From positions 15,804-79,803 of IMG/VR virus record IMGVR_UViG_3300012075_000001: DNA of 64,000 nucleotides. One strand, 5' to 3'. The notes below the pieces were generated by a model, which was not told where the DNA came from, did not search any database, and was given only the letters and a program-made list of their open reading frames with translations. Position numbers and translations under genes: made by a program. The DNA comes from a virus (Duplodnaviria; Heunggongvirae; Uroviricota; Caudoviricetes). Positions 5,111 to 63,891 of the stretch are shown here, piece after piece (position 1 is the first letter of the stretch; every line of letters starts with the position of its first letter).

Positions 5111-5130
5111 GTCAGTCATGACTGATTGAC
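5111..5130 (+). promoter_or_regulatory. variant palindromic motif (GTCAGTCATGACTGATTGAC)
   Basis: Related palindrome between dnaE and the next gene. Confidence 0.35.
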
Positions 5131-5182
5131 TTTTCTTTCAATGATTTTATAGTGACACCTTATTTTTAATGTAGAGGTAATT

Positions 5183-6280
5183 ATGACAACTCAAGTGCAA
5201 GATTTCACAAGCGAAGCAGATTTAGAAGAGCTATTTCAAGAATTAGACATGCTGGGCGAAAGCACTGCAAGCATAGCTGCTCAACCAACGCCAGCTCCCG
5301 CACCAGAGCCACAAGTTCAAGCGGTTCAACAACCTGTAGCTACCCCTACCCCTCAGCCGCAAGTAGTTACTGAAGCACCTGCGCAACCAACCGTCACTAC
5401 TCCACCGCCAGCTGAAGCGCAAACGCCTCATGCAATGTTTGCGAATATGAATGTTGGTGGAATGCTCAAACAAGCTGAAGGAAAAGTTGAGTTAGATCCA
5501 GAAACTCAAACCCCTCCACCACCTCAACAAACAAACCTACAACCACCAGTGCCGGAAAAGGTGGACAATGATCACGATCAAGAAGTTGTTGAGCAAATTT
5601 TTTCTTCGACCACTGCTACTGCATCCACCGCTCCTGCTAATCCTAGCGTCGTACCACCTGTCACAGCTGCTCCTAAAGCTCCTGAACCTACTACTTCGGT
5701 TCCTGCGCCAAAAACACCAACAGTGGGTCAACAAGCCTCAGCGTCGGGATACAGCGGAACGTTAGGCATCACTTTAGAGAATCTGAAGTATAAACCTGAT
5801 GTTCGTGCATTCCAGTTAGAAACAGCTATTTCTGACGCCACGATTGATCAGTGTATGACGAACCAACCTTCCTTAATGTCTTACTGGTCAGCGCAGCAGG
5901 CGTTGGCAGATCATCAACAGGCATTGGCTAAACGCCAGCTTGACCATGTTGAAGCTACGTTATTTCAGGTTTACCGCAAGGCACTTATTAAGAAAGGAGA
6001 GAAACCAACAGAGCGCCTTATTGATGCGTATATTCGCCGTGATGCAATGTGGGAATTGGCTTACGACGTACACGCTACAGCCTCTCAATATGCCAACATT
6101 TTGAAAGGTAATGTGTTTGCGCTTGTTCATCGTCGTGACATGTTAATTCAACGCGGCTCTAGTCTACGCGCAGAGTATCAAGGACAGGTTAGAACGCTTA
6201 GCGCGCAGAACCATGATGATCATTCAATGGCTGCGTTAGATAATGCTAACCGCGCATTAAATCGTACACATACCCAATAA
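5183..6280 (+). CDS. hypothetical protein: acidic N-terminal motif, P/T/Q-rich linker, conserved C-terminal domain
   Basis: Good SD (GAGGTAATT-ATG). The N-terminus is paralogous to that of 35103-36041. Confidence 0.5.
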   Translation: MTTQVQDFTSEADLEELFQELDMLGESTASIAAQPTPAPAPEPQVQAVQQPVATPTPQPQVVTEAPAQPTVTTPPPAEAQTPHAMFANMNVGGMLKQAEGKVELDPETQTPPPPQQTNLQPPVPEKVDNDHDQEVVEQIFSSTTATASTAPANPSVVPPVTAAPKAPEPTTSVPAPKTPTVGQQASASGYSGTLGITLENLKYKPDVRAFQLETAISDATIDQCMTNQPSLMSYWSAQQALADHQQALAKRQLDHVEATLFQVYRKALIKKGEKPTERLIDAYIRRDAMWELAYDVHATASQYANILKGNVFALVHRRDMLIQRGSSLRAEYQGQVRTLSAQNHDDHSMAALDNANRALNRTHTQ

Positions 6281-6295
6281 ATTCTATTGAAAAGA

Positions 6296-6316
6296 TCAGT
6301 CAGTACTGACTATACT
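6296..6316 (+). promoter_or_regulatory. palindrome AGTCAGTACTGACT + TATACT (promoter-like)
   Basis: Perfect 14-nt palindrome abutting a -10-like hexamer. Long inverted repeat (GTCAGAAC...GTTCTGAC) downstream. Confidence 0.5.
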
Positions 6317-6430
6317 ATTACCCGTCAGAACAAGCGAATCGCAGCACGTCGAAATGAAGCGATTCCCGAGTTCTGACAAGCAATCAAGCAACAAAGCAAT
6401 CAACGCAAAGCTACTCAAGGAAATTGTATC

Positions 6431-7321
6431 ATGACTCAATTCGTTTTAGACCCAGCAAAATTAATGGAAACCGCAGCAAATAAGCAAAATGCTATTCGCT
6501 CGCGTGAGAAAACTCTCAAACCTAAAGATGGGTCAAATCGTTTCGTGTTACTTCCGGGGTGGGGTTGGAAACAAGGTAAGCAAGATGTGTGGTTCCATGA
6601 CTTTGGTATGCACTTTATCAAAGATGCAAATGGTGACTTACAGTCTACTTATGTTTGTTTAGATAAAACTTATGGCAAGGACTGCCCGATCTGCGGAGCT
6701 TTAAAACAAGCTGCTAATATGGCTACAACAGAAGCTCAAGTTGAAGCGTTAAAAGAGTGTGGCTCACGTCAGACTTACTTAATGAACGTTTTGGCATTAG
6801 ATTCTGATCGACCTAACGACCCGCAAATCTTAGAAGTTCCTAAAACAGTGTTTAGCGCAATCTTCGATGTATTGGCTAAATGGGGTAGTCGTTTATTTGA
6901 TCCTAACGGTTCGCAAGTGATTGTAATTAACCGCAATGGTTCAGGTATGAATACCAAATACACTGTATTGCCAGATGCAGACACTAAACAAATCCAACCA
7001 CAGGTATATGAAAAACTTAACAACCTAGATGAATATGTACAGCAAGAAAATGATGAACGTTTACAACGCTCATTAGGTCATGTTCAGCAAGTTGTAGGTT
7101 TATTACCTCCATCTCAAAACAGCGATACGCCACGTACACCAGCAGCCGCTTTAGGTGTAGGCACTACCGCTCCGCAACAAACTTTCAGTCAAACTGCTGA
7201 AGAAATTTCGTATACCGAAGTTACTCAGCCTGCTCAACCTCAAGCAGCTCAACAGCCGCCGATTAACCTTAACACCGACCTCGACGCTTTATTAGACGGC
7301 GTTGATGACATTGTGGTTTAA
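6431..7321 (+). CDS. single-stranded DNA-binding protein, T4 gp32-like (Zn-binding)
   Basis: RFVLLPGW...H...C(X9)CPIC matches the gp32 RFLPS...H..C..C..C zinc subdomain pattern. Acidic C-terminal tail DLDALLDGVDDIVV. Confidence 0.55.
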   Translation: MTQFVLDPAKLMETAANKQNAIRSREKTLKPKDGSNRFVLLPGWGWKQGKQDVWFHDFGMHFIKDANGDLQSTYVCLDKTYGKDCPICGALKQAANMATTEAQVEALKECGSRQTYLMNVLALDSDRPNDPQILEVPKTVFSAIFDVLAKWGSRLFDPNGSQVIVINRNGSGMNTKYTVLPDADTKQIQPQVYEKLNNLDEYVQQENDERLQRSLGHVQQVVGLLPPSQNSDTPRTPAAALGVGTTAPQQTFSQTAEEISYTEVTQPAQPQAAQQPPINLNTDLDALLDGVDDIVV

Positions 7322-7334
7322 CCGTTAATCAACA

Positions 7335-12092: not shown

Positions 12093-12163
12093 CCTATTGT
12101 TCAGTCACCAATGACTTACTTTTAAAATGTTCATATCGAAAACAAACTAAAGAGTTTAATGAT

Positions 12164-12376
12164 ATGAACATTTCTAACAATCGCACGATTGACCGAACAG
12201 CTAAAGCCTTAATTAAGGAAGGTTGGACGTATCGCCAAAGCAAAGGCGGTCACGTTGTCTTGAAAGACCCTGCAACGGGCTTCTCTCTCCCCGCTCCTGT
12301 TTCTCCTTCTTGCCATAGAGCCGAGAAAAATTGGCTTTCAGCTGTGAAGAAAATACGACAAGGAGTTCGACCATAA
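12164..12376 (+). CDS. HicA/YcfA-like small protein
   Basis: AKALIKEGWTYRQSKGGHVVLKDP matches the HicA pattern (LEK.GW...R.kGSH...). Confidence 0.4.
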   Translation: MNISNNRTIDRTAKALIKEGWTYRQSKGGHVVLKDPATGFSLPAPVSPSCHRAEKNWLSAVKKIRQGVRP

Positions 12377-12774: not shown

Positions 12775-12806
12775 TCAGTCAGTACTGACTTAATTATGTC
12801 TATAAT
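12775..12806 (+). promoter_or_regulatory. palindromic motif + TATAAT
   Basis: AGTCAGTACTGACT then TATAAT 11 nt downstream. Confidence 0.45.
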
Positions 12807-17257: not shown

Positions 17258-17278
17258 TCAGTCAGTACTGACTATACT
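17258..17278 (+). promoter_or_regulatory. palindromic motif + TATACT
   Basis: Followed by the hairpin TTAAGGCGGCGA-TATG-TCGCCTTAA and a T-rich tract. Confidence 0.5.
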
Positions 17279-17338
17279 ATTAAGGCGGCGATATGTCGCC
17301 TTAATATTTTCTTTATTAAGTTTTTGGATCACTAACAG

Positions 17339-20696: not shown

Positions 20697-20720
20697 AGTC
20701 AGTCACTACTGACTTATAAT
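20697..20720 (+). promoter_or_regulatory. palindromic motif (AGTCACTACTGACT) + TATAAT
   Basis: Followed by hairpin AGGGGTGTT..AACACCCCT, then the nrdB start. Confidence 0.5.
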
Positions 20721-20760
20721 ACAGGGGTGTTTTAACACCCCTCTTTCATGGAATAAAGAA

Positions 20761-21753: not shown

Positions 21754-21783
21754 AAGAAAAGGCGCATTAAGCGCCTTTTTTAT
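21753..21783. terminator. bidirectional rho-independent terminator (nrdB / doc convergence)
   Basis: AAAAGGCGC-ATTAA-GCGCCTTTTTT. Confidence 0.75.
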
Positions 21784-22205
21784 AACTGATGAACATATTG
21801 ATAGAGGTAGTCGCCTAATGCCTCAGCAATTTCCTTGTGGCCACCGTCTTCGCATGATTGTGCGCTTTCAACAATGTCAACCATCATGTCATCCAGATCT
21901 TGATTAGGTTCAATGTAAACGCCTTGCATACGAAGGTAAGTCAACATTACGGTCAATCCTGTTCTTTTATTGCCATCTTTAAATGCGTGTTGCGTGGCAA
22001 TTGAAATACCATACCATGCCGCAATCACATAAATGTCATTCAAGCCTTCGTAGTAAACGTATTGTTGAACTCTTGCCAAAGCGCTTTCAAGTAGACCGTC
22101 ATTGGTTGGGCCTCTCAAGCCACCCTGTACGCTATCTAGAATTTCGTTATGAATCGCCTTTACAAGCGCTGCGTTAATTGTAGGTGCCGGATCAAAATCA
22201 TCCAT
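21780..22205 (-). CDS. doc: Doc (death-on-curing) / Fic-family toxin
   Basis: HAFKDGNKRTG matches the Doc/Fic motif H.F.(D/N)GNKR. Confidence 0.7.
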   Translation of the reverse strand: MDDFDPAPTINAALVKAIHNEILDSVQGGLRGPTNDGLLESALARVQQYVYYEGLNDIYVIAAWYGISIATQHAFKDGNKRTGLTVMLTYLRMQGVYIEPNQDLDDMMVDIVESAQSCEDGGHKEIAEALGDYLYQYVHQL

Positions 22206-22564
22206 TATTTATAAGCCAGACGTTCAAGTTCCTCGTGATGATCACGAATAACACTGCGGGCAACGCCACGAACCAAACGCTCAGAAGCAGGCGACTCAGT
22301 TAGCCCGATCATGACAGCCGCACGTTCTGAAGCAAGTTTGCGGGCACTCTCAAGAACTTTAGCGCTTTGAGAAGAATCAAGATACTTCATCATTTGCACA
22401 GCAGCACCAGTGCTTGCTTTGTCCAATAACAAATCTTCTAGCTGACGATTTTTCTCTTCTTCACTAAGTTGAGAAACTGATTCAAATGCTTTACGCATTT
22501 GCTCCATTCTGTCTTCGTACAGCTTGCTTTTACGCTCAGTTAAAAACTCGCTAAATCTTTTCAT
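22205..22564 (-). CDS. putative cognate antitoxin / partner of Doc (not Phd-like)
   Basis: Immediately upstream of doc on the same strand with a TAATG overlap. Helical and charged. -35 TTGACA upstream. Confidence 0.45.
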   Translation of the reverse strand: MKRFSEFLTERKSKLYEDRMEQMRKAFESVSQLSEEEKNRQLEDLLLDKASTGAAVQMMKYLDSSQSAKVLESARKLASERAAVMIGLTESPASERLVRGVARSVIRDHHEELERLAYK

Positions 22565-22708: not shown

Positions 22709-22730
22709 ATCAGTCAGTACTGACTATACT
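22709..22730 (+). promoter_or_regulatory. palindromic motif + TATACT
   Basis: Followed by hairpin GGAGGTGAC-GCCAA-GTCACCTC then TTTTT (22750-22776). Confidence 0.5.
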
Positions 22731-22797
22731 TTAACGCTCAGAGAACGAGGGAGGTGACGCCAAGTCACCTCTTTTTAATAGTGAGTGTCAACCAACA

Positions 22798-29414: not shown

Positions 29415-29456
29415 TCAGTCACTACTGACTTATTGAATCGGTAGTGACTTTTTTAT
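29415..29456 (+). promoter_or_regulatory. palindromic motif embedded in terminator-like hairpin
   Basis: AGTCACTAC...GTAGTGACT stem then TTTTTT. Confidence 0.45.
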
Positions 29457-30322: not shown

Positions 30323-30344
30323 ATCAGTCAGTACTGACTATACT
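30323..30344 (+). promoter_or_regulatory. palindromic motif + TATACT
   Basis: Perfect AGTCAGTACTGACTATACT. Confidence 0.5.
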
Positions 30345-32457: not shown

Positions 32458-32490
32458 ATAGTCAGTCACTACTGACTGCATTAATAAACC
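32458..32490 (+). promoter_or_regulatory. palindromic motif (variant)
   Basis: AGTCAGTCACTACTGACT then TTAATAAA. Confidence 0.4.
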
Positions 32491-36457: not shown

Positions 36458-36572
36458 ATGCGCGTAATTTCGCGTATTTCGCATTTGTTTAACTCGATTG
36501 ATAAATTACACATCTTTTCTATAAAAGCGCTTAAAAACGCAATTTTTTATAAATAATCACAATTCCAATTGA

Positions 36573-36597
36573 TCAGTCACTACTGACTGTTTATAAT
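36573..36597 (+). promoter_or_regulatory. palindromic motif + TATAAT
   Basis: AGTCACTACTGACTGTTTATAAT. Confidence 0.5.
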
Positions 36598-46016: not shown

Positions 46017-46283
46017 CTAATCACTTCATGGCTTTAAGCATCAAATAAATGAGCCCTACCGCTCCAAGAACAATAAATGCGGTCAACATGCGCCGTACTC
46101 AATTCATATCACATGCAATCATTATAACCATCGCAATAGGAAACACTATAGGCAACATAAGCGCCTCCACTTCTGTGTCCTACCCGGTATTTATACAATG
46201 CTCATATCAAGACAACGAAGCGCTGTAGTAATACAAATCGTGTGTATTGATAGATAAAAACGGTCTCACAAGCCACCTTTAAG

Positions 46284-46322
46284 CCAGCTCTATTCCCCCT
46301 ATTCGAGAGCTGGCTCTTTTTA
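46284..46322 (+). terminator. terminator-like hairpin inside noncoding region
   Basis: GCCAGCTCT-(13 nt)-AGAGCTGGC-TCTTTTTA. Confidence 0.45.
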
Positions 46323-47164
46323 TGCAAAATCAGCAAAAACAGGCAGTTAGAGCAATATTATTGTATATCATTGATTTATAGGAAATTTTACACAAATAAA
46401 CTGACTTGTAACTAACTCATAACTTACCCAACCGCCCTTATTATTGTCAGATAAGTAAACACACCCAATTTAACTCTTCATAATCACTCATAACAGCGCG
46501 CTAGAGACGCTTTAAACCTAAAGATGGTGAATCACTCATAACATACCTAAAACGCTCTCTAAAGCAATTCTATGCGCAATTACTAAATTAGGTTTTTGGC
46601 TATATCCGCGGCTAAACGTTATAACAAACAATCAGGCTTTCTTAAAGGCACAATTCATAATATCCGTATTATCGTAATATCATATTCCCATACGCCCATA
46701 CATACATACGGTAATATCGTAATACGCTAACAAACATATAGATCAAACAACGCATTTTTTAAAACGTATTCTAATAAAGAGAACTTACTATAAAACAATC
46801 TAACTACTCTACTGCTAACCCATAGAACAGCTAATCACATAACACACGCGCAATTTCATAACGCTATCTAAATAATCAAACTACCAATAAACCTTACTTC
46901 TCTATACGCTACTAAAACAAATCAATTAACACTGACAAAAACAATAACAATGACACGGACAATGATAAGTAAGCGCTGAACACTATATACACCAAGGATA
47001 GAGAGAATAACTCATATAACAATGATTCATCATACACGGATACATAGAGCCATAGGAAGTATGCATATAGGAGTTTATAAAGGAGTGATACATAGAGAGG
47101 GGAGTTGTGCAGTGTGCAGGAAGCGACCGAAGGGAGCGGTGGATTCAATCGATTAAAAAATTGT

Positions 47165-47245
47165 CTCCGCCAAGTTTCTTACACTTGCAAAGTCAGTAAC
47201 TACTGACTAAACTTTCGAACGAAAGTTTTCACCGCTTGGCGGTGG
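47165..47245 (+). promoter_or_regulatory. palindromic motif nested inside a long inverted repeat, no -10
   Basis: CCGCCAAG...AGTCAGTAACTACTGACT...AAACTTTCGAACGAAAGTTT...CTTGGCGG. Confidence 0.4.
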
Positions 47246-47751
47246 ACCCATTTTGCTTTTGATAGGGGTGCGTTTTACTTAGGGTCGACGTTTACCAACT
47301 ACGGAATGTTAGCATTTCGATGTGGCGTAGATTAAGTAATTGCCTTCTCCCTTCCTTCTCGTTTAATTGTCTTTTTAGGCTACGGGGGGGAAGGGGGGGC
47401 ATTTTCACTTCTTCTAACGTTTTCACATCGGAATGGTGTAATACTTTAAAAGCTTATAAGAACAATGAAAAATCCCAATGAAATTCCTGAACAAACTAAT
47501 TTTCCAAAAATCACATATACACACTGGCAAATGGCACAAAAATTTCGTCGCCGAGGCAAATCCACAAAGCCAACAATTCAATTATCCACGGCGCACCCAA
47601 GGCATGTTCCACGCAAAAGTTGGCGAATCCTTGGGTGAAACATGCGGCTAATCGGAAGAGGCGATTGATGAATATCACTACGCCATGCGGTGTATGTCCA
47701 GCTGCTAAATATCACAATGCACATATCGAAAACGTATAGAGAGAAACGGCA

Positions 47752-47973
47752 ATGAGTGAAGATGTTAAAAGTATAGATGTGGAGAACTTCCACGTTGAAA
47801 TCAATGCCAAGACTCAGCGCGGCTGGTTTGAGCATGACGAAGAAGAAATTGAAGGCGGTCTGTGGTTCCAAGACAATGTGCTTGTTGACTATGACGGCGT
47901 ATTTGAACTACCAGTGGCGGTGACACATGCCATTCACCAATTGGGCTTTCGTGTGGAGTGTGAAGATATATGA
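47752..47973 (+). CDS. hypothetical small protein
   Basis: ORF after the long noncoding region. Confidence 0.35.
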   Translation: MSEDVKSIDVENFHVEINAKTQRGWFEHDEEEIEGGLWFQDNVLVDYDGVFELPVAVTHAIHQLGFRVECEDI

Positions 47974-48140
47974 AGGAATATCAAATCAAGGTAATACGCA
48001 TGGAGGTTATAACTGTGCGGGCCATTAGCAAAGAAGCCGCATTTGACTACGCCGAAGATCCAAAGAATTTTCCACCAAACTCGGAGCTGTTCGACGCCCA
48101 CCTCATAAGTGAGGAAGAGATAAAGGATAAGCCGCTGTAA
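47970..48140 (+). CDS. hypothetical small protein (56 aa), not in supplied ORF track
   Basis: ATGA-coupled to the previous gene. Terminator follows. Confidence 0.3.
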   Translation: MKEYQIKVIRMEVITVRAISKEAAFDYAEDPKNFPPNSELFDAHLISEEEIKDKPL

Positions 48141-48283
48141 TAGGCGGTTTTCTTTTTGGCCACATTCTTGCCTAGGCCAATCCAATTTTCACTCAGGCAC
48201 AGGCCAAGGCATTTTTCATGAGGCTAATCCTCGGCACATCCACGGCGCGGCCAACACACAGGAGACATGCACACAACGCCTAA

Positions 48284-48357
48284 GCCACGTGTTACTTATC
48301 CACTAACGCATTGAGAAAATAGCTCTATCGAAACAAGCAACACATAGAGTTAAGCAA
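48284..48357 (+). repeat. conserved leader element, copy C
   Basis: ACGCCTAAGCCA...ATTGAGAAAATAGCTCTATCGAAACAAGCAACACATAGAG with CTCTAT/ATAGAG inverted repeat. Confidence 0.5.
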
Positions 48358-48849
48358 ATGAAAGTTACAGCACACCGTATAGCACCAATGGGTTATGATG
48401 CTTTGATCATAGGTTTTGATCGCCCTTGTATAATATCGCTTTGCAAAGACACCGTTTCGCCTCTGTGTGGTTCGAGCTTAAATAACGACAGAAGCGTGTT
48501 TCGATATAGCTCATTTACTGAAGAGGATGAGCAAAACCCTAACTTGAGCGCCAAAGACTATGCGTATGTTGATGGTTTAGGTTTTAGTGATTTTTACCGT
48601 TATTACAGCACTATAGACTTGTCACACTTGACGCATGAACAGCATAAAATCATGTATACAGCGGTTGCAGAAATTAACGATGTAACCGACTTCTGCAACT
48701 ACACTCCAATGCCAGAAGAGTGTGAGCAGGAGCGTGAAGATTGTCGCAAGCTCATGAAGCGCACAGACAACATGGTAATTAATTTGAAGAAGCTCCACAT
48801 AAAATATTCAGACGGTGAAAAAGCAACTTACGACGACTTACACAACTAA
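48358..48849 (+). CDS. hypothetical protein, paralog of 44731-45309
   Basis: Shared YYSTIDLSHLTHEQHK block. Conserved leader upstream. Confidence 0.45.
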   Translation: MKVTAHRIAPMGYDALIIGFDRPCIISLCKDTVSPLCGSSLNNDRSVFRYSSFTEEDEQNPNLSAKDYAYVDGLGFSDFYRYYSTIDLSHLTHEQHKIMYTAVAEINDVTDFCNYTPMPEECEQEREDCRKLMKRTDNMVINLKKLHIKYSDGEKATYDDLHN

Positions 48850-48944
48850 GCTGACACACTGATTAAGTGAATGCGGTTGAGCTTAATTGACCGCCTTCAT
48901 GCTGTGTAGAACAGTTCTGATGCTCACTCACTATGGACACGACT

Positions 48945-48974
48945 GCACCGCTCTAAGATGAGCGGTTTTTTATT
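48945..48974 (+). terminator. rho-independent terminator
   Basis: ACCGCTC-TAAGAT-GAGCGGTTTTTT. Confidence 0.7.
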
Positions 48975-49274
48975 ATCGTACGCAACGTGCCATGGACAAT
49001 CCAAAGCAGATCCACGCTGCATCCAAGAGTGAAAAACGGCGTTGCCTCGGCTGAACACTAGAATTTTCCTAAAACACCCGCACGCTCGCATAAGGAACTG
49101 CCGCTCTCCACAGTGCCGCCGTGGAAGAGCCACACGGCAATCCAATTTCCGACAGGATTTGCCTTGGCGTTAACCATCCAAAAACAGCGCCAACCCTTGT
49201 GCCATAAGGTTTTCATAGATTTTGAGTGAATTTTCGTTTTTAATTTTGAACAAGTGATTAATTAGCGCTCAAAA

Positions 49275-49308
49275 TTGACTTGCAACAAGTCAATTAAGGT
49301 GTAATTAT
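49275..49308 (+). promoter_or_regulatory. palindromic operator TTGACTTGCAACAAGTCAA overlapping sigma70-like promoter
   Basis: 19-nt perfect palindrome. Candidate -35 TTGCAA, 16 nt, -10 TAATTA. Confidence 0.45.
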
Positions 49309-49357
49309 TCGCTCAGTCGGTTAGCTCGAAACAAACCGACAAATACAACTTAACTAT

Positions 49358-49699
49358 ATGAAGGTTTTTATCATGACAACTCAAAACATGCGTAAATTAG
49401 CTATAACTAAACTTACTAATGAATTAAGCAACGATAGCGAATTGTTGAATACTGTATTAGAAGGTAAACATGCATACATGAAGTTAATACAACAACGTGC
49501 AGAAGTTCACGCACAACTATGCATAGAACGTCAAAATAAGCGTATCGAGTATCTAACAGCGATAACAAAGCACAAAAAGGTTTTAAAGCTGTCTAAAAGC
49601 ACATTTATGAATGATTTTATCAACAAATACATGTTTAACTTCATGCAGTACCGTAGCATTGCGTTAAACGTGCATAACATGCGGTTAACAGTGATATAA
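49358..49699 (+). CDS. hypothetical protein
   Basis: Downstream of the palindromic operator/promoter at 49275. Confidence 0.4.
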   Translation: MKVFIMTTQNMRKLAITKLTNELSNDSELLNTVLEGKHAYMKLIQQRAEVHAQLCIERQNKRIEYLTAITKHKKVLKLSKSTFMNDFINKYMFNFMQYRSIALNVHNMRLTVI

Positions 49700-50644: not shown

Positions 50645-50680
50645 TCAGTCACTACTGACTGTTTAACCGCGGTCAGTAGC
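50645..50680 (+). promoter_or_regulatory. palindromic motif whose right half is reused in a hairpin
   Basis: AGTCACTACTGAC tgtttaaccgcg GTCAGTAG. Confidence 0.4.
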
Positions 50681-51747: not shown

Positions 51748-53463
51748 TTATGCTGCCTTCCTGGTGAATCCTAGATCTTCAAAATTGAACTCATTCACAA
51801 TGTTTTCGCCGAACCCCTTCGTATGCTCCACAATCTCACGACGCTGCATGGCATGATTCTTTGTATGTGAGTTCCAATGGTCTGTGAAGTCAACAATGAA
51901 CGCCACGTTTGGACCAGTCTTCTTCGCACGCAAACCACGACCGATCCGCTGACGAAGGGCAATTTCAGCTTTACCACCACCCCCAAGAATAATCATACCG
52001 ACCGCAGGGACGTCGACACCGACATCCAAAATGGTTGTACCGATCAACGCATCAATAGTACCGCTGGACAGCTTATTCAGCGCTAATTTGCGCTCTGCTT
52101 GATTGTTTTCACCTTTGATGAACTCAGCACGTAACCCGTATTGAGTCAAAAGCTCAGTTAAATGGTCGCCGTGTGATGTGTGCTGCACGAGAATCATCGA
52201 CGTCAAACCATACGCTTTTGCTCGAATGATCTCGCTCACAATCGCTAAGTTGCGCTCTTCATTGTCAGTCACACCAAGTCGATATGCTGATTGCCAACCA
52301 GTGCTGCGGAGTAAGTGCGTCGGCTTCTTGCGAAGTTCAATATATTTGAAATAAGGCTTCGCCAATACACCGCGTTGAATCAACATTTCCTCAGACACTT
52401 TAATTGCGATAGGGCCAGAACATGCCATTAGGCGCATGTTTGACTCTTCGCTCTCACGCATAAACGGTGTACCCGTTAATGCCAAGCGATAGTGAGCGTT
52501 TTTGCAGTGGCGCATGATTTCGTAGTAAGAATTGCCTGAAGCTTCGTGCGCCTCTTCAAGAATCACAAACTCAAACATAGAAAGAAGTTTGATTGTTTTT
52601 AGGCGCTCAATATTCTTTTCATCAAATTTGGCCTTCGCCTTATTTGTCATGTCTTGAGCGTTCGCTTTTAACCACACTTGCTGCTTGGTGATCAAATCAT
52701 TTGTGGCAGTTGTAATCTCAGCTGTGCTTTTTTTGTCTTTAGTTAGCTTTGTTTTTAAAGCCACAATTTCTTTTTTGAACTTCTCTTGAGCCGCTTCAAA
52801 TAAAACATTGAACTCTCCTTGAATCGTGGTGACTTCAAGCTTGCTAATAAACGTTTGCACTGTTCCGACTGACATCATTTTGATTGTCGTTTGCCCTTGT
52901 GCGTTGATGTGGCCAAAGTGACCGTCGCCAAAAACTGAACAGGGGATACCCATATCTTTTTCGAATGCATCTTTCATTTGATACATCAGGATTGAGCGGG
53001 TGGTAAGAAAAAGGGTAGGTCGATTAATGCGAGCGAAGCAAAGACGGGCAATACGAGACTTACCGCCACCTGTAGCAACTTGCGCAATAATTTGGCCATG
53101 TTTGACCAGTTTGTCCATTACCTCAGGCTGATAGTCATACTTAGGGTCATATCCAAAAGCATCGACCTGCGGACGCTCAGGGCCTAATGGAGCGGGGAAG
53201 GGCTTGCGAACGATATTAACTTGATAGCCTTCACGGCGAAGGTTAGCGGCAACAAAATGAAGGAAGCCCGCTGGAAAAGAGCAATTTTTATAAACAAAAA
53301 AAGATGAACGACCATCCCACTTATGTTGTTTAAACAAGGCCATCGTTTCAGCGCCGTCAACTTGGTACGATAGCGCCTTTTGGACAATTAATTTTACTTT
53401 GGTGCTGGGTTGATTCAGCACGGCATTTACCGCGTTGGCGGCAATCGTAACTACCTCTGACAT
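51748..53463 (-). CDS. SF2 DNA helicase (UvsW-like)
   Basis: Walker A VATGGGKS, DEAH-like LEEAH, helicase C motif QRIGRGLR. Confidence 0.7.
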   Translation of the reverse strand: MSEVVTIAANAVNAVLNQPSTKVKLIVQKALSYQVDGAETMALFKQHKWDGRSSFFVYKNCSFPAGFLHFVAANLRREGYQVNIVRKPFPAPLGPERPQVDAFGYDPKYDYQPEVMDKLVKHGQIIAQVATGGGKSRIARLCFARINRPTLFLTTRSILMYQMKDAFEKDMGIPCSVFGDGHFGHINAQGQTTIKMMSVGTVQTFISKLEVTTIQGEFNVLFEAAQEKFKKEIVALKTKLTKDKKSTAEITTATNDLITKQQVWLKANAQDMTNKAKAKFDEKNIERLKTIKLLSMFEFVILEEAHEASGNSYYEIMRHCKNAHYRLALTGTPFMRESEESNMRLMACSGPIAIKVSEEMLIQRGVLAKPYFKYIELRKKPTHLLRSTGWQSAYRLGVTDNEERNLAIVSEIIRAKAYGLTSMILVQHTSHGDHLTELLTQYGLRAEFIKGENNQAERKLALNKLSSGTIDALIGTTILDVGVDVPAVGMIILGGGGKAEIALRQRIGRGLRAKKTGPNVAFIVDFTDHWNSHTKNHAMQRREIVEHTKGFGENIVNEFNFEDLGFTRKAA

Positions 53464-53498: not shown

Positions 53499-53522
53499 AA
53501 AGTATAAGTCAGTACTGACTGA
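53499..53522. promoter_or_regulatory. palindromic motif in divergent region; TATACT lies on minus-strand side
   Basis: AGTATA-AGTCAGTACTGACT: the -10-like hexamer is oriented toward the minus-strand helicase gene. Confidence 0.45.
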
Positions 53523-53534: not shown

Positions 53535-54173
53535 ATGACACACGAACTTATATGGGTTGACCCTGCTCAATTGCAGCCTAACCCGTGGAACTCAAACATC
53601 GTGTCGCCAGAAAATGAAGCTAAGTTAAAGGCATCCATCGAACGTCGCGGAATGTTCAAGCCTATTGTCGTGCGTCAGCTCGACGATGGTTCATTCCAAA
53701 TTATCGGTGGGGAACATCGCTCTCTAGTCGCAAAACAAATGAAAATGGACAAAGTGCCCGCTTTCAATCTTGGAAAAATCAGCGACAAAGAAGCTAAAGA
53801 AATTGGACTGCTCGATAACGGGCGGTACGGTTCCGATGATGCACTCAAATTGGCTGAAATCTTTGCGGACATTGGAACGCCCGAAGACCTTGCCAACTTC
53901 ATGCCTTTCACTTCTTCAGACATCGACACGATTTTCACTAATTCAACTATAGCCCTAGATGCTCTAGCTGACCTCGATTTGCCAGACGAAAACGTTGAAT
54001 TGCCTTCAGGAAAAGCAGTTCAAACACATCAAATCATGCGATTCAAAGTCCCTGTAGAGCAAGTGGACAAAGTAGTTGAACGCATTCAGGCCGTTATTAA
54101 GTCACAAGGATATGACGATGACGACGCCATGATTAACGCCGGGGACGCTTTAGCCCACATTGTACTCAAGTAA
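53535..54173 (+). CDS. ParB/Srx-like nuclease-domain protein
   Basis: N-terminal ParB-like block (PIVVRQLDDGSFQIIGGEHR). Confidence 0.55.
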   Translation: MTHELIWVDPAQLQPNPWNSNIVSPENEAKLKASIERRGMFKPIVVRQLDDGSFQIIGGEHRSLVAKQMKMDKVPAFNLGKISDKEAKEIGLLDNGRYGSDDALKLAEIFADIGTPEDLANFMPFTSSDIDTIFTNSTIALDALADLDLPDENVELPSGKAVQTHQIMRFKVPVEQVDKVVERIQAVIKSQGYDDDDAMINAGDALAHIVLK

Positions 54174-54184
54174 GGATACTGAGA

Positions 54185-54706
54185 ATGACCGAACAGGAAG
54201 TTGAACAACGATTGCAGGAATTGCAACGCACAGCACCGCGCTTATCGCCAGAACTGATCGATGAAAAGATTGCACATAAAACGTTTTATGTTCATGGCGG
54301 CAAATTAACAGTTTGTATTTTGAAGCTTCAAAACGGTTTTGAAATCGTTGGAGAGTCTGCTTGTGCGCATCCAGATAACTTCGACCAAGAACTAGGCGAA
54401 AAGGCGGCATTTGAAAACGCTCGACGCCAAATCTGGAAGCTTGAAGGTTACTTGCTTTGCCAAAAGCTTTACGAACAGGCTTTAGAAGGCGGCAAAACCT
54501 TCCTCGACCGCCTCTTTGATGAGCATAAGCAACAAGTAGATCGCCGTGACAAACTTCACGCCTTCATGGTGAACGGCAAACCTGACCACGTATCAGATGT
54601 TGAATGGTTCCAGTTGGCAGATCAACTTGACGTATTAGTTGATTACGTTGACATCCTCGAAACACGTATCGCCATTCACACCAAATCTGAAGAAGAAGAG
54701 GAATAA
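54185..54706 (+). CDS. hypothetical protein
   Basis: ORF only. Confidence 0.4.
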   Translation: MTEQEVEQRLQELQRTAPRLSPELIDEKIAHKTFYVHGGKLTVCILKLQNGFEIVGESACAHPDNFDQELGEKAAFENARRQIWKLEGYLLCQKLYEQALEGGKTFLDRLFDEHKQQVDRRDKLHAFMVNGKPDHVSDVEWFQLADQLDVLVDYVDILETRIAIHTKSEEEEE

Positions 54707-54713
54707 GCACTCT

Positions 54714-55355
54714 ATGGAATTAATTATTCAACAATGGAATGTTGATGAAGTTAAGCCATACGAACTGAACGCAAAAATCCACGACAAAGCACAGGTTGAG
54801 CGTATCGCTCAGTCAATTAAAGAGTTTGGTTGGGATCAACCAATTGTCGTAGATAAGGACGGCGTAATTATCAAGGGGCATGGTCGTCGTGAGGCGGCTT
54901 TGCATCTTGGTTTAAAAGTCGTTCCCGTGTTAGTTCGCTCAGACCTTGACGATCATCAAGTCCGTGCAGCTCGACTTGCCGACAACCGTGTTGCAATCGG
55001 GGACATCGACACCGATTTGCTACAAAAAGAGCTTCAGACGCTTAACTTTGATCTTGAAGGCATCTTCGACAAGAAGGAACTCAATTTTGTTGCCGCTGAC
55101 CTATCAGGCATGAACCTAGATTCGATTGTTTTGGATCTGGACAGCGAAGTGGCCAAACAGACTGAAGAAACCATCAAAAAAATTGAAGAAACGGACGCCA
55201 GAGCTGTTCGTATCGACAAGGCTCTTGGGTTTAAAGAAATCAAGGGTAAGGATGAACGCTTTGTTGCTCAGTTCATGGCTGTAGCGGAAGGCGAAACAGG
55301 TCTTGAGGGCGCAGATGCCTTTATTGAGTACGTTAAAAAACAGGTGACGAAATGA
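54714..55355 (+). CDS. ParB/Srx-like nuclease-domain protein (second copy)
   Basis: PIVVDKDGVIIKGHGRREAA. Confidence 0.55.
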   Translation: MELIIQQWNVDEVKPYELNAKIHDKAQVERIAQSIKEFGWDQPIVVDKDGVIIKGHGRREAALHLGLKVVPVLVRSDLDDHQVRAARLADNRVAIGDIDTDLLQKELQTLNFDLEGIFDKKELNFVAADLSGMNLDSIVLDLDSEVAKQTEETIKKIEETDARAVRIDKALGFKEIKGKDERFVAQFMAVAEGETGLEGADAFIEYVKKQVTK

Positions 55356-57373: not shown

Positions 57374-57689
57374 TTTAACCCCGAAGCAAGTTGAAATTCT
57401 CTTGTTGGTGTTTAAAAAAAACACCGATGGAACACATTTCGATCTTGATCAATTACTTACCGAGTTGAGCTACAAGCCAACCAAACAGGCATTGCAGTTC
57501 TCGATACGATCACTGATCAAAACTCATAAGTACATTTCCAAAGGCAGTGAGAAACGCCGTGGCCGCAGACATGTGACTTACCTCGCAACACCAACAGGTG
57601 AATACGTGGCGCAGCAATATTTACCCAAGCCGGGTAGTTCATCTAACCTTAAAAACGCTTTGGTCGAAGATGAAACAACCGCGATTTAA
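57357..57689 (+). CDS. hypothetical protein (possible winged-helix)
   Basis: ORF only. Confidence 0.35.
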   Translation: MLMSVNLTPKQVEILLLVFKKNTDGTHFDLDQLLTELSYKPTKQALQFSIRSLIKTHKYISKGSEKRRGRRHVTYLATPTGEYVAQQYLPKPGSSSNLKNALVEDETTAI

Positions 57690-57727: not shown

Positions 57728-57768
57728 AATATACTCAGTCATTACTTAGTGACTAAGTAATATTTAAT
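57728..57768 (+). promoter_or_regulatory. variant palindromic motif (AGTCATTACTTAGTGACTAAGTAAT)
   Basis: Extended near-palindrome flanked by TATACT and TAATAT. Confidence 0.35.
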
Positions 57769-57791
57769 AGCGGTTACGATTAGGATTCCCA

Positions 57792-58195: not shown

Positions 58196-58222
58196 TCAGT
58201 CAGTACTGATTGACATAGATTA
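58196..58222 (+). promoter_or_regulatory. palindromic motif variant (AGTCAGTACTGATTGAC)
   Basis: Upstream of the terminase small subunit candidate. Confidence 0.4.
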
Positions 58223-58305
58223 ATTTTAAAAGTATCCTCAGCCAAACGACGGGGTGTTTCAGACAGGAAGTAGGAGCCACCCCTTTTCAACTTCTTGGAA
58301 AGCGA

Positions 58306-60150: not shown

Positions 60151-60172
60151 ATCAGTCATTACTGACTGATAA
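60151..60172 (+). promoter_or_regulatory. palindromic motif variant (AGTCATTACTGACT)
   Basis: Between terminase and portal candidates, 15 nt before SD AGAGGAAAGG. Confidence 0.4.
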
Positions 60173-61886: not shown

Positions 61887-61935
61887 CAGTCAAGGGAACG
61901 ACTGTAGCTAAGAGACTAGCACAAGGAAGATCGAT

Positions 61936-62790
61936 ATGCCTTTATGGATGCAACTTTTAATGAATGGCGGCTTACTTCAACAAGAAGCCGATGGTGAAGG
62001 TTCTGATTTAGGAGCTGGCGCGGGCGCAGAAGGTGGCGCAGCACAAGACCCTAAAGGCGAGCCAACTAAAGAAACTGACGAGCCAAAAAAAGAAGATGGC
62101 GACAACAAGCCAACTGATAAAGAAGCTGAATTACTTAAAGAAGTAATGAAGAAAAAAGCTGAAGCACAACGGGCGAAGCAGGAGCTTGAAGACCTAAAGG
62201 CTAAATATATCGACATCGATCCTGAAGCTGCTCGCAAGGCACTTGAAGAGAAGAAAGAACAGGAAACGAAACAGCTTGAAGCGAAGGGTGATTTTGAGCG
62301 CTTAAAAGCTCGCATGGCCGAAGAGCATGCGAAAGAAGTGACCGCTTTGAAAACACGCATTGCCGAGCTGGAAAGTGCCGACTCTAGTAAATCTCAAACG
62401 ATCAACGACCTAACGGTCGGAACACAGTTCACTCAGTCGCAATACATCAAAGAAGACCTACTTTATACGCCAACTAAGTTGCGTGCGTTATATGGCAGTC
62501 ACTTTGAAATTGAAGATGGCAAAGTTGTTGGTTACGACAAACCTCGCGGTTCGGCTGAGCGTACCAAAATTGTAGACAGCCAAGGTAACGCCGTTGGTTT
62601 TGATAAAGCGCTTGAAAAGATCATTTCGCTAGATCCAGATGCGAATTACATGATCAAAGCTAAGTCTAAACCCGGAGCTGGTTCACAGCCAAACCCTAAA
62701 CAGGGTGCCCAAAAGCCAAATGAGAAAGTAACTTCTCAAGCCAAAATCTCAAATGGTTTAACACAGTTGTTTGCTGGCCAAGGTCAGTAA
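61936..62790 (+). CDS. scaffold protein candidate
   Basis: E/K-rich coiled coil between portal and capsid candidates. Confidence 0.35.
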   Translation: MPLWMQLLMNGGLLQQEADGEGSDLGAGAGAEGGAAQDPKGEPTKETDEPKKEDGDNKPTDKEAELLKEVMKKKAEAQRAKQELEDLKAKYIDIDPEAARKALEEKKEQETKQLEAKGDFERLKARMAEEHAKEVTALKTRIAELESADSSKSQTINDLTVGTQFTQSQYIKEDLLYTPTKLRALYGSHFEIEDGKVVGYDKPRGSAERTKIVDSQGNAVGFDKALEKIISLDPDANYMIKAKSKPGAGSQPNPKQGAQKPNEKVTSQAKISNGLTQLFAGQGQ

Positions 62791-62841
62791 GTCCAAATAG
62801 CACGCTCGACCCCTTATAGTTCGGGCGTTTCAGTAAAAATA

Positions 62842-62862
62842 ATCAGTCATTACTGATTGATC
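62842..62862 (+). promoter_or_regulatory. palindromic motif variant (AGTCATTACTGATT)
   Basis: Between scaffold and capsid candidates. Confidence 0.4.
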
Positions 62863-62962
62863 TTTTGGATCCATTGTAGTAGGATTCTCGATCAATCGGT
62901 GGCTAGAGAGAGTTAGTAAATCCGACAATCTCAATGAGCAAATTAACTAATGGAGTAGTTAA

Positions 62963-63865
62963 ATGCCACTATTACGCGAAGAAGCTGCGAAGCTTAGTAA
63001 TAACGAACTCGTCTCAGGCGTGGTCGAAGAAATCATCGACAAGGATGAAATGTTTGCGTTTCTTCCATTTATCGGCGTAAAAGGGAAAGCTTACGTCTAT
63101 AACCGTGAAAAAACGTTAGCTGACGCTGATTTCTTGGATCCAAACGAAGAAATCAAAGAATCTGCATCAACGTTCGACGAAGTTACTGCCAAGTTACGTA
63201 TTTTGGCTGGTGACGTCGACATCGACAAATTCCTTGATTCAACAATGGATGACACTAATAACCAAATGGCGATCCAAGTGACGCAAAAGGCGAAAGGTGT
63301 TGGCCGTAAATTCCACAAAACTTTAGCAACTGGTGATGCCTCTGTTAACCCGAAAGAGTTTGACGGTATCGCAAAACTTGTAACTGAAGAGCAAACTATT
63401 GTCGCTGGTGACAATGGTAGTGGTATCACTTTAGCGTTGTTAGACGAATTACTTGATAAGGTTCCTCATGGTGCCGACTGTTTAGTGATGCGTCGTGGTA
63501 CGATTCGTGCGTACCGTAACTTGCTCCGTGTGACATCGGGCACTGACGCTGTAATGCAGATGATCGAAAACTTTGGTCGTCCAATGTTGACGCACAACGG
63601 TGTGCCAATTGTGATGAACGAATTTTTGCCAGCTGACGAAGTGGTGGGCACGAACCAAAAAACGTGTTCTATTTACGCAATCCGTGCAAACGAAGTAGAT
63701 GGCTTACATGGTATCTACGGCGGTGGCCCTGCTGGTATCGTTGTTGAAAACATCGGTACGGTACAAAATAAAGACGCAACACGCATCCGCTTAAAGTGGT
63801 ATGTTGGTTTAGTCTTGAAATCAACTAAGTCTTTGGCGCGTTTAAAAGGTATTACTAATACCTAA
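62963..63865 (+). CDS. major capsid protein candidate
   Basis: Gene order. Strong terminator follows. Confidence 0.35.
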   Translation: MPLLREEAAKLSNNELVSGVVEEIIDKDEMFAFLPFIGVKGKAYVYNREKTLADADFLDPNEEIKESASTFDEVTAKLRILAGDVDIDKFLDSTMDDTNNQMAIQVTQKAKGVGRKFHKTLATGDASVNPKEFDGIAKLVTEEQTIVAGDNGSGITLALLDELLDKVPHGADCLVMRRGTIRAYRNLLRVTSGTDAVMQMIENFGRPMLTHNGVPIVMNEFLPADEVVGTNQKTCSIYAIRANEVDGLHGIYGGGPAGIVVENIGTVQNKDATRIRLKWYVGLVLKSTKSLARLKGITNT

Positions 63866-63869
63866 TAAA

Positions 63870-63891
63870 TCAGTCACCACTGACTTACAAT
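63870..63891 (+). promoter_or_regulatory. palindromic motif variant (AGTCACCACTGACT) + TACAAT
   Basis: Just after the capsid-candidate stop, before a terminator. Confidence 0.4.

Follow-up and report, generated by a model that had tools for sequence, protein, structure and literature searches.

A repeated palindrome as a predicted protein-binding box in the lytic-gene promoters of an Acinetobacter phage-plasmid

Investigation of a 64,000-nt stretch of DNA (hereafter the window) from an Acinetobacter phage-plasmid of the SSU5/nickie type revealed a repeated palindrome, AGTCAsTACTGACT, which is predicted from its sequence and surroundings to be a protein-binding box forming an integral part of the lytic-gene promoters and is most likely the switch by which a single phage regulator governs the entire virus. 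The palindrome is the predicted site of a phage-encoded dimeric helix-turn-helix protein and would constitute a genome-wide operator set, for which the likeliest binder appears to be an Xre-type repressor, a tentative reading to which we assign a probability of about 0.45.

The window contains 11 exact matches to AGTCASTACTGACT, six of them perfect palindromes, and 18 sites with up to two mismatches (shuffle expectation 0.00 and 0.42, respectively). All 18 copies are intergenic, intergenic DNA making up 13.8% of the window (P about 3e-16), and all are oriented in the same way as the genes downstream of them. An earlier, sequence-only reading had described about 18 intergenic copies of a phage-specific, genome-wide element linked to promoters. 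That description holds, and 17 of its 18 positions are real copies, while 57737 is merely a three-mismatch relic; three positions (20697, 32460 and 47191) had each been placed 4 nt too early and one (5111) 1 nt too late, and the copy at 12103 and the partial inverted copies at 29436 and 50671 had been overlooked. The conserved core spans 16 nt, TC-AGTCAsTACTGACT, and its almost invariant left-hand TC, set against a variable right-hand flank, makes the element directional. In the window's clade the C variant lies on the coding strand in every case, and the -10-fused copies of about 24 nt are almost identical to one another, with an invariant TATACT. Two clearly distinct classes of copy are present: in one, a perfect palindrome is fused to TATACT and the -35 is poor; in the other, a variant copy is placed over a good promoter.

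Regarding promoter context, a TAnnnT hexamer whose first base coincides with the final base of the palindrome, or directly follows it, is present on the downstream side of nine of the 18 copies and on the upstream side of none (P about 4e-10), in agreement with the earlier claim of an adjoining -10. TATACT is directly fused in four copies and stands one base further on in the copy at 53507, which, as had been proposed, faces the minus-strand helicase gene. In the nine copies with this hexamer the box lies within the spacer of a sigma-70-type promoter; in the remaining placements it overlaps a consensus -35 or a predicted start site. A canonical -35 had been reported as absent, and most fused copies do lack a good one, but -35-like hexamers at a spacing of 17-18 are present at 6298 (TTGAAA-18-TATACT), 36575 (TTGATC-17-TATAAT) and 47195 (TTGCAA-17-TAAACT). 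The 6298 layout, upstream of the gp32-type SSB gene, recurs in eight lineages, in six of which a -35-like hexamer is found 17-18 nt before the -10, a distance at which the palindrome fills a normal promoter spacer. The register between box and -10 is preserved from lineage to lineage, including those whose palindrome has a different sequence.

Relative to the best promoter-like elements, the box is found at -50..-37 (5110), -47..-34 (58198) and -44..-31 (L036 5740), at the spacer sites at -29..-16 (36575) and -25..-12 (6298 and others), and near the start at -5..+8 (29417), +8..+21 (32464) and +10..+23 (the CobT site); the boxes at 29417, 32464, 60154 and the CobT site are at or past the predicted start. 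Of 21 copies, 18 coincide at least partly with a promoter-like site, compared with 19% of random positions. Two copies overlap near-consensus promoters, TTGACT-16-TATAGT and TTGACA-17-TATCCT (the end of the 58198 box overlapping the TTGACA), which should require no activator. This variable geometry fits an operator set better than a MotA-type activator box, and the MotA-like arrangement suggested earlier does not hold for the boxes over the -35 (5110, 58198) and at or after the start. A promoter-then-terminator layout had also been proposed, which is real at 22712 and 30326, while at 17260, 20701 and 63872 the predicted start falls inside the 5' arm of the terminator, intrinsic in the case of 17260; at 29417 the left half of the box itself forms that arm. 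The genes that precede 22712 are encoded on the minus strand, so that a plus-strand transcript must begin at this site. At 60154 there is no space for a promoter downstream, and both Acinetobacter clades share this conserved site. SSU5 has a palindrome of its own at the matching terL|portal position (Table 1).

Table 1. Palindrome copies and associated features in the window (positions counted from its first letter).
Feature	Position	Strand	Details
Phage sigma-70-family protein	158..841	+	227 aa; seen only in lineages carrying the motif class
Degenerate copy AGTCAGTCATGACT	5110..5123	+	2 mismatches; directly precedes a sigma-70-like promoter (next row)
Promoter by 5110 copy	5126-5131, 5148-5153	+	TTGACT 5126-5131, N16, TATAGT 5148-5153
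gp32-type SSB promoter	6298..6316	+	Perfect palindrome 6298-6311; fused TATACT 6311-6316; -35 TTGAAA 6287-6292
Degenerate copy AGTCACCAATGACT	12103..12116	+	2 mismatches; conserved in related plasmid
Perfect palindrome	12777..12790	+	2 nt past upstream stop; SbcD-like gene 30 nt on
Box and terminator	17260..17306	+	Perfect palindrome 17260-17273; TATACT 17273-17278; intrinsic terminator 17278-17306
Box and terminator	20701..20742	+	C-variant 20701-20714; TATAAT 20715-20720; hairpin about 20723-20742 overlapping predicted start
thyX leader site	22712..22776	+	Perfect palindrome 22712-22725; TATACT 22725-22730; hairpin and T-run 22750-22776
C-variant and inverted partial copy	29417..29456	+	Palindrome 29417-29430; inverted partial copy 29436-29449; T-run
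Perfect palindrome fused to TATACT	30326..30344	+	-10 at 30339-30344; long hairpin with T-run follows in leader
C-variant palindrome	32464..32477	+	No adjoining -10; upstream promoter-like TACAAT places box at about +8 to +21
Spacer site	36569..36597	+	TTGATC (-35) 36569-36574; C-variant 36575-36588; gtt; TATAAT 36592-36597
AGTAACTACTGACT fused to TAAACT	47195..47213	+	1 mismatch; uncompensated arm change; TTGCAA 17 nt before hexamer
C-variant and inverted partial copy	50647..50679	+	C-variant 50647-50660; GGTCAGTAG 50671-50679
Perfect palindrome with TATACT	53501..53520	-	Palindrome 53507-53520; TATACT 53501-53506; faces helicase gene 51748-53463; 14 nt before ParB-like gene; arrangement shared by second clade
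Relic	57737..57750	+	3 mismatches; within 21-bp palindrome
Terminase/structural promoter	58198..58238	+	AGTCAGTACTGATT 58198-58211; TTGACA 58210-58215; N17; TATCCT 58233-58238
Symmetric copy, TC...GA flanks	60154..60167	+	10 nt past terL stop; 15 nt before portal ATG
Symmetric copy AGTCATTACTGATT	62845..62858	+	Major capsid gene 104 nt on
AGTCACCACTGACT	63872..63915	+	Box 63872-63885; TACAAT 63886-63891; terminator after capsid gene overlapping predicted start

Comparison with a related plasmid (NZ_CP031445.1, 83% identical) showed that the 16-mer is 95% identical against 80-81% for its flanks, and 28 copies of the palindrome occupy syntenic positions in the related plasmid. In a second clade the corresponding places are taken by about 30 copies of a different palindrome, AGTAAGCrCTTACT, fused to the -10 in the same manner. 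The arms are constant among the window and the uncultured relatives L043, L042, L046 and L044 and the central 4 bp vary (AGTCA-GTAC/GCGG/TTCC/GTGG/CAAC-TGACT, respectively), while in the second clade both arms are altered together (AGTAAG-CG-CTTACT). Constant arms, variable centres and the joint arm change point to a dimeric DNA-binding protein rather than an RNA hairpin, and a dimeric factor, already suggested by the sequence-only reading, is the best reading of the palindrome. The lytic relative nickie lacks the repressor, the sigma gene and the motif, which also favours the operator reading.

The gene encoding the Xre-type repressor (L036 5186-5653, minus strand) is located about 4.2 kb upstream of the window, beside integrase and ParA genes. 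A degenerate copy of the box separates this gene from the rightward early region and is oriented towards the former, and no copies are present before the rep, parA and integrase genes; both observations count for the operator reading. The recognition helix is (R/K)PN(V/I) in five lineages with AGTCA/TGACT and (S)QNM in two with AGTAA/TTACT, an apparent co-variation with the palindrome arms that is confounded by phylogeny. Pairing of Arg/Lys with G and of Gln with A is chemically plausible (cf. the 434 and lambda repressors). The sigma protein diverges in parallel with the helix, its 28% identity between clades being the lowest among shared genes.

The analysis established the motif, its direction and conservation, the -10 fusion, the inter-clade difference that affects both arms symmetrically, the variable promoter position and the sigma fold of ORF 158-841, while we infer which protein binds and that it represses. 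Almost all lytic operons appear to have a box within, or directly beside, their sigma-70-type promoters, where RNA polymerase would be blocked by a dimer occupying the spacer (-25 to -12), the -35 or the start, and the copies within operons (terL|portal and just before CobT) could serve as roadblocks. All operators jointly would silence roughly 100 kb of co-oriented lytic genes during plasmid life; loss of the repressor would free every promoter simultaneously, to be read by host sigma-70 or by the phage sigma factor. Several points count against repression: a poor -35, as in most fused copies, usually signals positive control, neither the fixed box/-10 register across lineages is required of a pure operator nor is the invariance of TATACT typical of ordinary sigma-70 promoters, and a single repressor over early and late operons would give no obvious temporal order. 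In addition, L042 has the sigma gene and the motif, and the ParA/integrase/HTH module is absent from its syntenic place (20 kb of 103 kb covered), although L042 could be a virulent derivative with operators retained, like D29 in the L5 group.

Activator- or sigma-dependent promoters are a serious rival, given that the sigma gene is found only in motif-carrying lineages. The palindrome would then be the site of a dimeric activator or sigma partner and would form, with the adjoining -10, a phage-specific promoter used after induction, of the kind seen in P1 late promoters (an Lpa box with a -10 and no -35), with the product of ORF 158-841, correctly recognised earlier as sigma-like and here assigned to the sigma-70 family, supplying -10 recognition. 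Sigma gene and motif class co-occur in all 11 lineages examined and are both missing from nickie; L042 retains the two with no lysogeny module at the usual place (in the 20 kb covered), the register is fixed in nine of 18 copies and across lineages, most fused copies have no good -35, their near-identity over about 24 nt with an invariant TATACT resembles promoters of a dedicated factor, and P1 late promoters share the logic (AAGTGACTT, 4 bp, TAnnnT). However, a two-fold symmetric site is unreadable by a sigma monomer, and a box at -25..-12 is too near the -10 for sigma domain 4 held by the beta-flap in the established geometry of RNA polymerase. Copies over a consensus -35, over starts or 15-20 nt before start codons cannot activate, neither an Lpa homologue nor a second conserved DNA-binding candidate among the clade-shared genes was found, and SSU5 has its own intergenic palindromes without a sigma gene; we consider positive control possible but less likely than repression.

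A dual-function regulator, the same dimer repressing over the -35 or start and activating (or being required) when filling the spacer, is improbable. Position-dependent activation or repression occurs in lambda CI and MerR-type proteins, and the two distinct copy classes agree with it, but the spacers are a normal 17-18 bp instead of the 19-20 bp typical of MerR-type promoters.

An RNA-level signal, in which the transcribed hairpin would process, stabilise or terminate the 3' end of the upstream gene, could explain why many copies begin 2-18 nt past a stop codon, why the C variant is always on the coding strand and why, at 29417 and 50647, one half of the box can pair with the partial copy that follows it, yet it is very unlikely, as the hairpin is just 5-6 bp in fused copies, constant arms with a variable loop are the reverse of structural RNA, the arm change at 47195 is uncompensated, the 22712 and 53507 copies follow opposite-strand genes and so have no upstream transcript, and no Rfam match was found; the RNase or terminator alternative raised earlier is disfavoured on the same grounds. 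Equally hard to sustain is a site without a role in transcription, either for packaging or replication or for ParB/parS-type loading of the two ParB-like proteins (53535-54173 and 54639-55355); the 53507 copy does lie 14 nt before a ParB-like gene, and KorB of RK2 binds 12 dispersed palindromes, but nickie has both ParB-like genes (39-41% identity) and no motif, the ParB-like proteins are 56-64% identical between two clades whose motifs differ, and the -10 fusion and gene-oriented direction indicate transcription.

The palindrome set is a newly recognised case, no description of AGTCAsTACTGACT having been found in the literature searched, of a system type known from P1 C1 operators, L5 stoperators and P1 Lpa promoters. 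As in T4 MotA promoters, a phage box in many copies replaces or accompanies the -35 and the sigma-70 -10 is kept, but MotA acts as a monomer together with AsiA on an asymmetric 9-mer fixed at -30, whereas the window box is symmetric, nearer the -10 and variable in position. P1 Lpa promoters, of which about 11 precede late operons, likewise have a short inverted repeat just before the -10 and lack a -35 (acAAGTGACTT-N4-TAnnnT); the P1 box, however, has 9 bp and is separated from the -10 by 4 bp, while the window box has 14-16 bp and overlaps the -10 by its last base, the window has no Lpa homologue, and many of its copies lie away from late genes or without a -10. The operators of 434 and lambda Cro/CI are also 14-bp palindromes whose outer bases are conserved and whose central 4 bp vary, bound by a dimeric HTH_3 protein (in the phage-plasmid, the candidate) encoded divergently from the early lytic operon, but classical phages have 3+3 operators at one switch and the phage-plasmid about 28, genome-wide. 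The stoperators of L5/Bxb1, about 25-35 copies in short intergenic gaps and in one orientation relative to transcription, lie either at promoters or within operons, where they block elongation (PMC9283540), and the virulent derivative D29 retains the sites without the repressor (PMC5712189); they differ in being 13-bp, asymmetric and read by a monomer, while the window site is two-fold symmetric and half of its copies are fused to a -10. P1 C1 is, similarly, the one immunity repressor of a phage-plasmid, with many operators scattered over the -35, -10 or start of separate sigma-70 promoters (Oref, Omat, Ossb, Oc4, OrepL and Olpa in the P1 record), although these operators are 17-bp and asymmetric, C1 is not Xre-type, and the P1 late operons are directly under Lpa rather than C1, whereas in the window a single palindrome is found at operons of every kind, early, replication, structural and lysis.

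Exact sites of the palindrome AGTCAsTACTGACT were found at 11 positions in the window, six of them perfect palindromes, against a shuffled-window expectation of 0.00, and with up to two mismatches the 64-kb window contains 18 sites compared with 0.42 in shuffles. A representative site of the window clade reads AGTCAGTACTGACT and its counterpart in a second clade of Acinetobacter baumannii plasmids (clade 2, pABTJ2 type) reads AGTAAGCGCTTACT. All 18 copies lie outside long ORFs, in 13.8% of the window (P ~3e-16). Alignment of the copies extends the motif to a 16-nt core, TC-AGTCAsTACTGACT, and since the left TC is nearly invariant and the upstream side A-rich while the right flank is variable, the motif is directional. 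The orientation of every copy matches the flanking genes, including the sole minus-oriented copy in the divergent region (53507), which is directed at the minus-strand helicase gene as the sequence-only reading had proposed. A TAnnnT hexamer that begins with the final base of the palindrome or with the next one is present on the downstream side of 9 of the 18 copies and on the upstream side of none (P ~4e-10). Of the 18 coordinates in that earlier reading 17 are real, three of them placed 4 nt early and one 1 nt late; the remaining one (57737) is only a relic with three mismatches, and the reading overlooked one copy (12103) along with two partial ones in inverted orientation (29436, 50671). 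The exact 21-mer searched has no match in GTDB species representatives, and its matches in IMG/VR are only in viral contigs with isolate-genome-type numbering, taken as Acinetobacter.

Coordinates of the motif copies and other features discussed here (window positions unless another genome is named)
Feature	Position	Strand	Observation
Sigma-70-family protein, 227 aa	158-841		
229-aa protein after the sigma gene	916-1605		Has a C-terminal stretch (phrog_3932) in common with the 312-aa protein; homologue in nickie
DNA polymerase III alpha subunit	1637-5098		PHP, pol3 alpha, finger and HhH, with C-terminal uracil-DNA-glycosylase-family domain
Motif copy	5110	+	TTGACT-16-TATAGT
Motif copy	12103	+	
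HicA-like toxin gene	12164-12376	+	Amid plus-strand genes
Motif copies	17260, 20701, 63872	+	Intrinsic terminator starts 0-2 nt past the −10 hexamer
doc/phd-type toxin-antitoxin pair	21780-22564	−	One of few minus-strand islands
Complete T-run hairpin	22750-22776		Predicted leader of thyX
Motif copy	29417	+	Left half of box is 5' arm of a terminator
Inverted partial copies	29436, 50671		
Complete T-run hairpin	30350-30400		Predicted leader of gene 30430-31179
Best-conserved small ORFs	33391-33738, 33885-34178		62-78% identity between clades with different motifs
312-aa protein	35103-36041		Homologue in nickie
Gene-poor region	46200-49400		Scattered short repeats, e.g. ATCCACGGCGCACCCAA four times (47584, 48227, 48238, 49010); several long-range inverted repeats; a 2.2-kb gap without annotated genes at the corresponding place of the related plasmid
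Motif copy	53507	−	Before the helicase gene
Relic copy	57737-57771		Within the 21-bp palindrome ATTACTTAGT-G-ACTAAGTAAT; arms like clade-2 and SSU5 sites (AGTAA/TTACT)
Motif copy	58198	+	TTGACA-17-TATCCT
Motif copy	60154	+	15 nt before the portal start codon
IS26-flanked msr(E)-mph(E) macrolide resistance module	NZ_CP031445.1, 10419-15604		Inserted in a toprim-domain gene
Palindromes	nickie, e.g. 52090-52115, 57395-57425, 71545-71570		GTGCGCTC-TTACAAT-GAGCGCAC; TCGAGCGCTA-TCAT-TAGCGCTCGA

The genes of the window are those of a large siphovirus that carries a replication set of its own, comprising DnaE fused to a UDG-family domain, a gp32-type SSB, a 5'-3' exonuclease, a RecA/UvsX-like recombinase, SbcCD and ribonucleotide reductase, with further genes encoding ThyX, a DEAD-box helicase and two ParB-like proteins, and virion genes for terminase, portal and an SU10/GP7-type capsid protein. 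The capsid and polymerase group it with Salmonella phage SSU5, Pseudomonas phage nickie and related phages, and its DNA is 83% identical to A. baumannii plasmids of 107-112 kb. Megablast and tblastn searches against cultured phages detected no close relative, the nearest capsid among them being that of Stenotrophomonas phages (62% identity). A 109.6-kb contig of the same genome supplies the region upstream of the window, with the gene order ligase, guanylate kinase, ParA, integrase, Xre-type HTH (minus strand), a 66-aa ORF, CobT, CobS and ORF 158-841. The polymerase/UDG gene is cut in two by a NUMOD4 (homing-endonuclease-like) gene in clade 2, and is interrupted at the same point by a 57-aa ORF in the relative L042 (MUNK22-1 scaffold_33).

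Regarding conservation, the plasmid NZ_CP031445.1 carries 28 copies along its full length, in replication, nucleotide-metabolism, structural, tail and lysis regions, at positions matching those of the window copies; the rep, parA and integrase genes are not preceded by any copy. Between the two genomes identity is 95% over the 16-mer and 80-81% over the 20-nt flanks on either side. Clade 2, which is syntenic at ~66% DNA identity to the window, has ~30 copies (0.7 expected) of another palindrome, (a)tATT-AGTAAGCrCTTACT followed by ATAAT or AATAT, which occupy the same kinds of place; the terL/portal copy is of the symmetric type, and the helicase/ParB copy directed at the helicase, in both clades. 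In nine more uncultured relatives, found via the sigma-like protein, a palindrome with a fused −10 precedes the SSB gene in every case, the boxes at this promoter including AGTCAGCGGTGAC followed by TATACT, and AGTCATTCCTGAC, AGTCAGTGGTGAGC, AGTAAGTACTTAC, AGATAAGTAGCGCCTTATC and ATCAGTCAGCGCTGATC, each followed by TATAAT. Comparison across lineages shows constant arms around four freely varying central bases, and where arms differ they change as a pair; the single arm change within the window, at 47195, is uncompensated. Counts of k-mers, palindromes and intergenic 8-mers detected no shared motif in nickie; many gaps between its genes carry a palindrome, each of another sequence and with a −10-like hexamer at its centre. 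SSU5 has two palindrome families, TA(A/G)GTA-nn-TACTTA at ~25 intergenic sites including terL/portal and helicase/ParB, and AAACAAnTTGTTT in 14 copies, most of them 10-15 nt downstream of a gATAAT hexamer and clustered in the 80-95 kb region. The SSU5 sequence TAAGT-N4-ACTTA was rejected as the same element, as its arm spacing differs and only two sites fit AGTmA-N4-TkACT, and the SSU5 palindromes are treated as an analogous set, not homologous to the window motif.

All start sites referred to here are predicted from promoter-like matches, not mapped. Matches of sigma-70 type are scarce (17 versus 34 expected in 19 kb), and the two best on the plus strand both involve motif copies. Promoter-like matches are overlapped by 18 of 21 copies, compared with 19% of random positions, and the position of the box relative to predicted starts spans −50 to +23. 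When SSB promoters are aligned on the −10, a −35-like hexamer (TTGAAA, TTGAAT, TTGCTA, TTGAAG, CTGAAA, TTGCAT) lies 17-18 nt upstream in six of eight lineages, and the palindrome at these promoters fills a spacer of normal length. Among fused or near-fused window copies a −35 score of at least 4/6 was obtained for four of nine, versus 16% of random TAnnnT sites. The boxes at 5110 and 58198 reach up to or into a near-consensus −35; for those at 29417, at 32464 and before CobT the best promoter-like match is upstream, which puts the box on the predicted start or on the initial 20 nt of the transcript, and at 60154 a downstream promoter has no room. Two other layouts were rejected: the right arm CTGACT as a −35, with no −10 hexamer 16-18 nt on in 12 copies inspected by eye and only faint A/T enrichment there in the column profile, and a MerR-type promoter, the spacers being 17-18 bp and not 19-20.

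The favoured reading, to which a probability of roughly 45% is given, is that the box constitutes a genome-wide operator set for an Xre-type immunity repressor, the binder being a candidate only. It is favoured because the box position is variable, two copies sit on promoters needing no help and copies occur inside operons; as for dispersed operators, many copies lie at or between lytic operons (18 in 64 kb, 28 in the complete relative), with variable overlap with promoter elements on predicted starts. The sole conserved candidate found for a protein reading the box is the Xre-type HTH protein beside the integrase, 155 aa long and encoded 4.2 kb upstream of the window. Members of this repressor family occur in the genome of the window and in the relatives p1, p2, L038, L039, L046, L048 and L049, and are absent from SSU5 and from nickie, which also lacks the sites; L042 has sites and no repressor at the syntenic place (20 of 103 kb covered). 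The HTH reads G(F/L)x(R/K)PN(V/I) where the arms are AGTCA/TGACT (five lineages) and GI(N/K)(S)QNM where they are AGTAA/TTACT (two lineages). From what is generally known of HTH-DNA contacts, Arg or Lys touching G and Gln touching A would fit the one differing base pair; this match of helix and arm is no more than suggestive, as the two groups have diverged in the sigma protein and in all else too. Facing the repressor gene, at a distance of 87 nt before it, is a degenerate copy whose right arm also serves as a −35 (CTGACT-18-TATTAT) for rightward transcription. As alternative binders, a 'cro-like' small ORF before CobT was rejected, being alignable in five lineages and not in L042 and having no HTH signature; the remaining conserved small ORFs lack a DNA-binding domain or are too conserved between clades with differing motifs.

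The main rival, possible but on balance doubtful, is that the copies are promoters coupled to an activator or to the sigma factor, as in P1 with Lpa, where an inverted repeat stands at a fixed distance from a −10 with no −35. In its favour, the box keeps one register to the −10 in half of its copies and between lineages, most fused copies have a poor −35, TATACT is invariant, and L042 has the sigma gene and the motif with no lysogeny module at the usual place. Nine of the 18 copies show the Lpa-like layout, several of them with a −35-like hexamer, and the other copies have another geometry. No Lpa homologue was detected by tblastn or phmmer in the window, p1, p2, SSU5 or nickie (best E-value 0.43). 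L042 could be a virulent derivative that retained its sites, as D29 does (PMC5712189).

ORF 158-841 does encode a sigma-70-family protein, as first suggested from sequence, in the gene order CobT, CobS, sigma, a ~225-aa protein and DnaE, which is always conserved. The gene is absent from SSU5 and nickie, and its product has no match whatever among cultured phages (megablast/tblastn). The motif class is present in every sigma-bearing lineage examined, and nickie is without both. The conserved block is two-fold symmetric, lies at −25 to −12 and varies in position among copies, unlike asymmetric sigma −10/−35 elements. The sigma protein would thus not itself read the box, since a sigma monomer cannot read a two-fold symmetric site and −25 to −12 is too near the −10 for a flap-held domain 4; boxes over start sites are not promoter elements, so the protein reading them would be another one, presumably a dimer. 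A promoter class requiring both the phage sigma factor and a spacer-bound dimeric protein is unlikely; if true, such two-part recognition has not been described for any phage sigma, and the lytic programme of the ~110-kb Acinetobacter phage-plasmids, some with resistance genes, would depend on one 14-mer. A dual-function regulator is less probable still.

Regarding hairpins, the closeness of the terminator to the −10 at 17260, 20701 and 63872 places the predicted start inside the terminator's 5' arm. Transcripts reading in from upstream would form the complete hairpin and terminate there, and locally started transcripts would be without most of the 5' arm. Most cases of the promoter-then-terminator layout of the sequence-only reading would thus be a compact overlap, at these copies and 29417, with full leader hairpins at 22712 and 30326. 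These two leader hairpins, downstream of a fused box and −10, are kept in the related plasmid with some stem changes and look like attenuators. That the palindrome itself is an RNA-level signal, raised earlier as the alternative of an RNase processing or termination site, is highly improbable: the box hairpin has only 5-6 bp in fused copies, an Rfam search of the window gave no match, and, unlike a structural RNA, the box has constant arms, variable loops and an uncompensated change at 47195. Constant arms, a free centre, paired arm changes and the uncompensated 47195 point to a dimeric protein reading double-stranded DNA, not a hairpin. A DNA site unrelated to transcription, such as a ParB/KorB-type parS, is hardly credible, as the ParB-like proteins neither co-occur nor co-vary with the sites, being 56-64% identical between clades with differing motifs and encoded in nickie, where sites are absent.

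The ~107-112-kb elements are widespread plasmids of clinical A. baumannii, some with resistance genes, such as the IS26-flanked msr(E) and mph(E) of NZ_CP031445.1, which gives practical relevance to a result otherwise of moderate relevance to phage and plasmid biology. A box marking nearly every lytic promoter provides a map of transcription units, and being recognisable it allows a direct test of prophage silencing and offers a route to induce or cure the element. The clade comparison provides matched pairs of site and candidate reading protein (AGTCA with the RPN helix, AGTAA with the QN helix), and the sigma proteins form an uncharacterised phage sigma family of ~100 clusters in public data.

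In the searchable literature neither the 14-mer nor an account of the regulation of ~107-112-kb phage-plasmids was found, and papers on pABTJ2, phage-plasmids and SSU5/Cyrano do not mention such a motif. Among known systems, the box belongs by its sequence to none of the P1 C1, L5 stoperator or P1 Lpa families. The fused copies resemble the P1 late promoters (acAAGTGACTT-N4-TAnnnT), with the difference that Lpa is absent and the candidate binder is an Xre-type dimer. In its way of working, a genome-wide operator set would be like the dispersed C1 operators of P1 (P1 record features) and the stoperators of L5-type mycobacteriophages (PMC9283540), from which it differs in that C1 and gp71 sites are asymmetric and the site here is symmetric.
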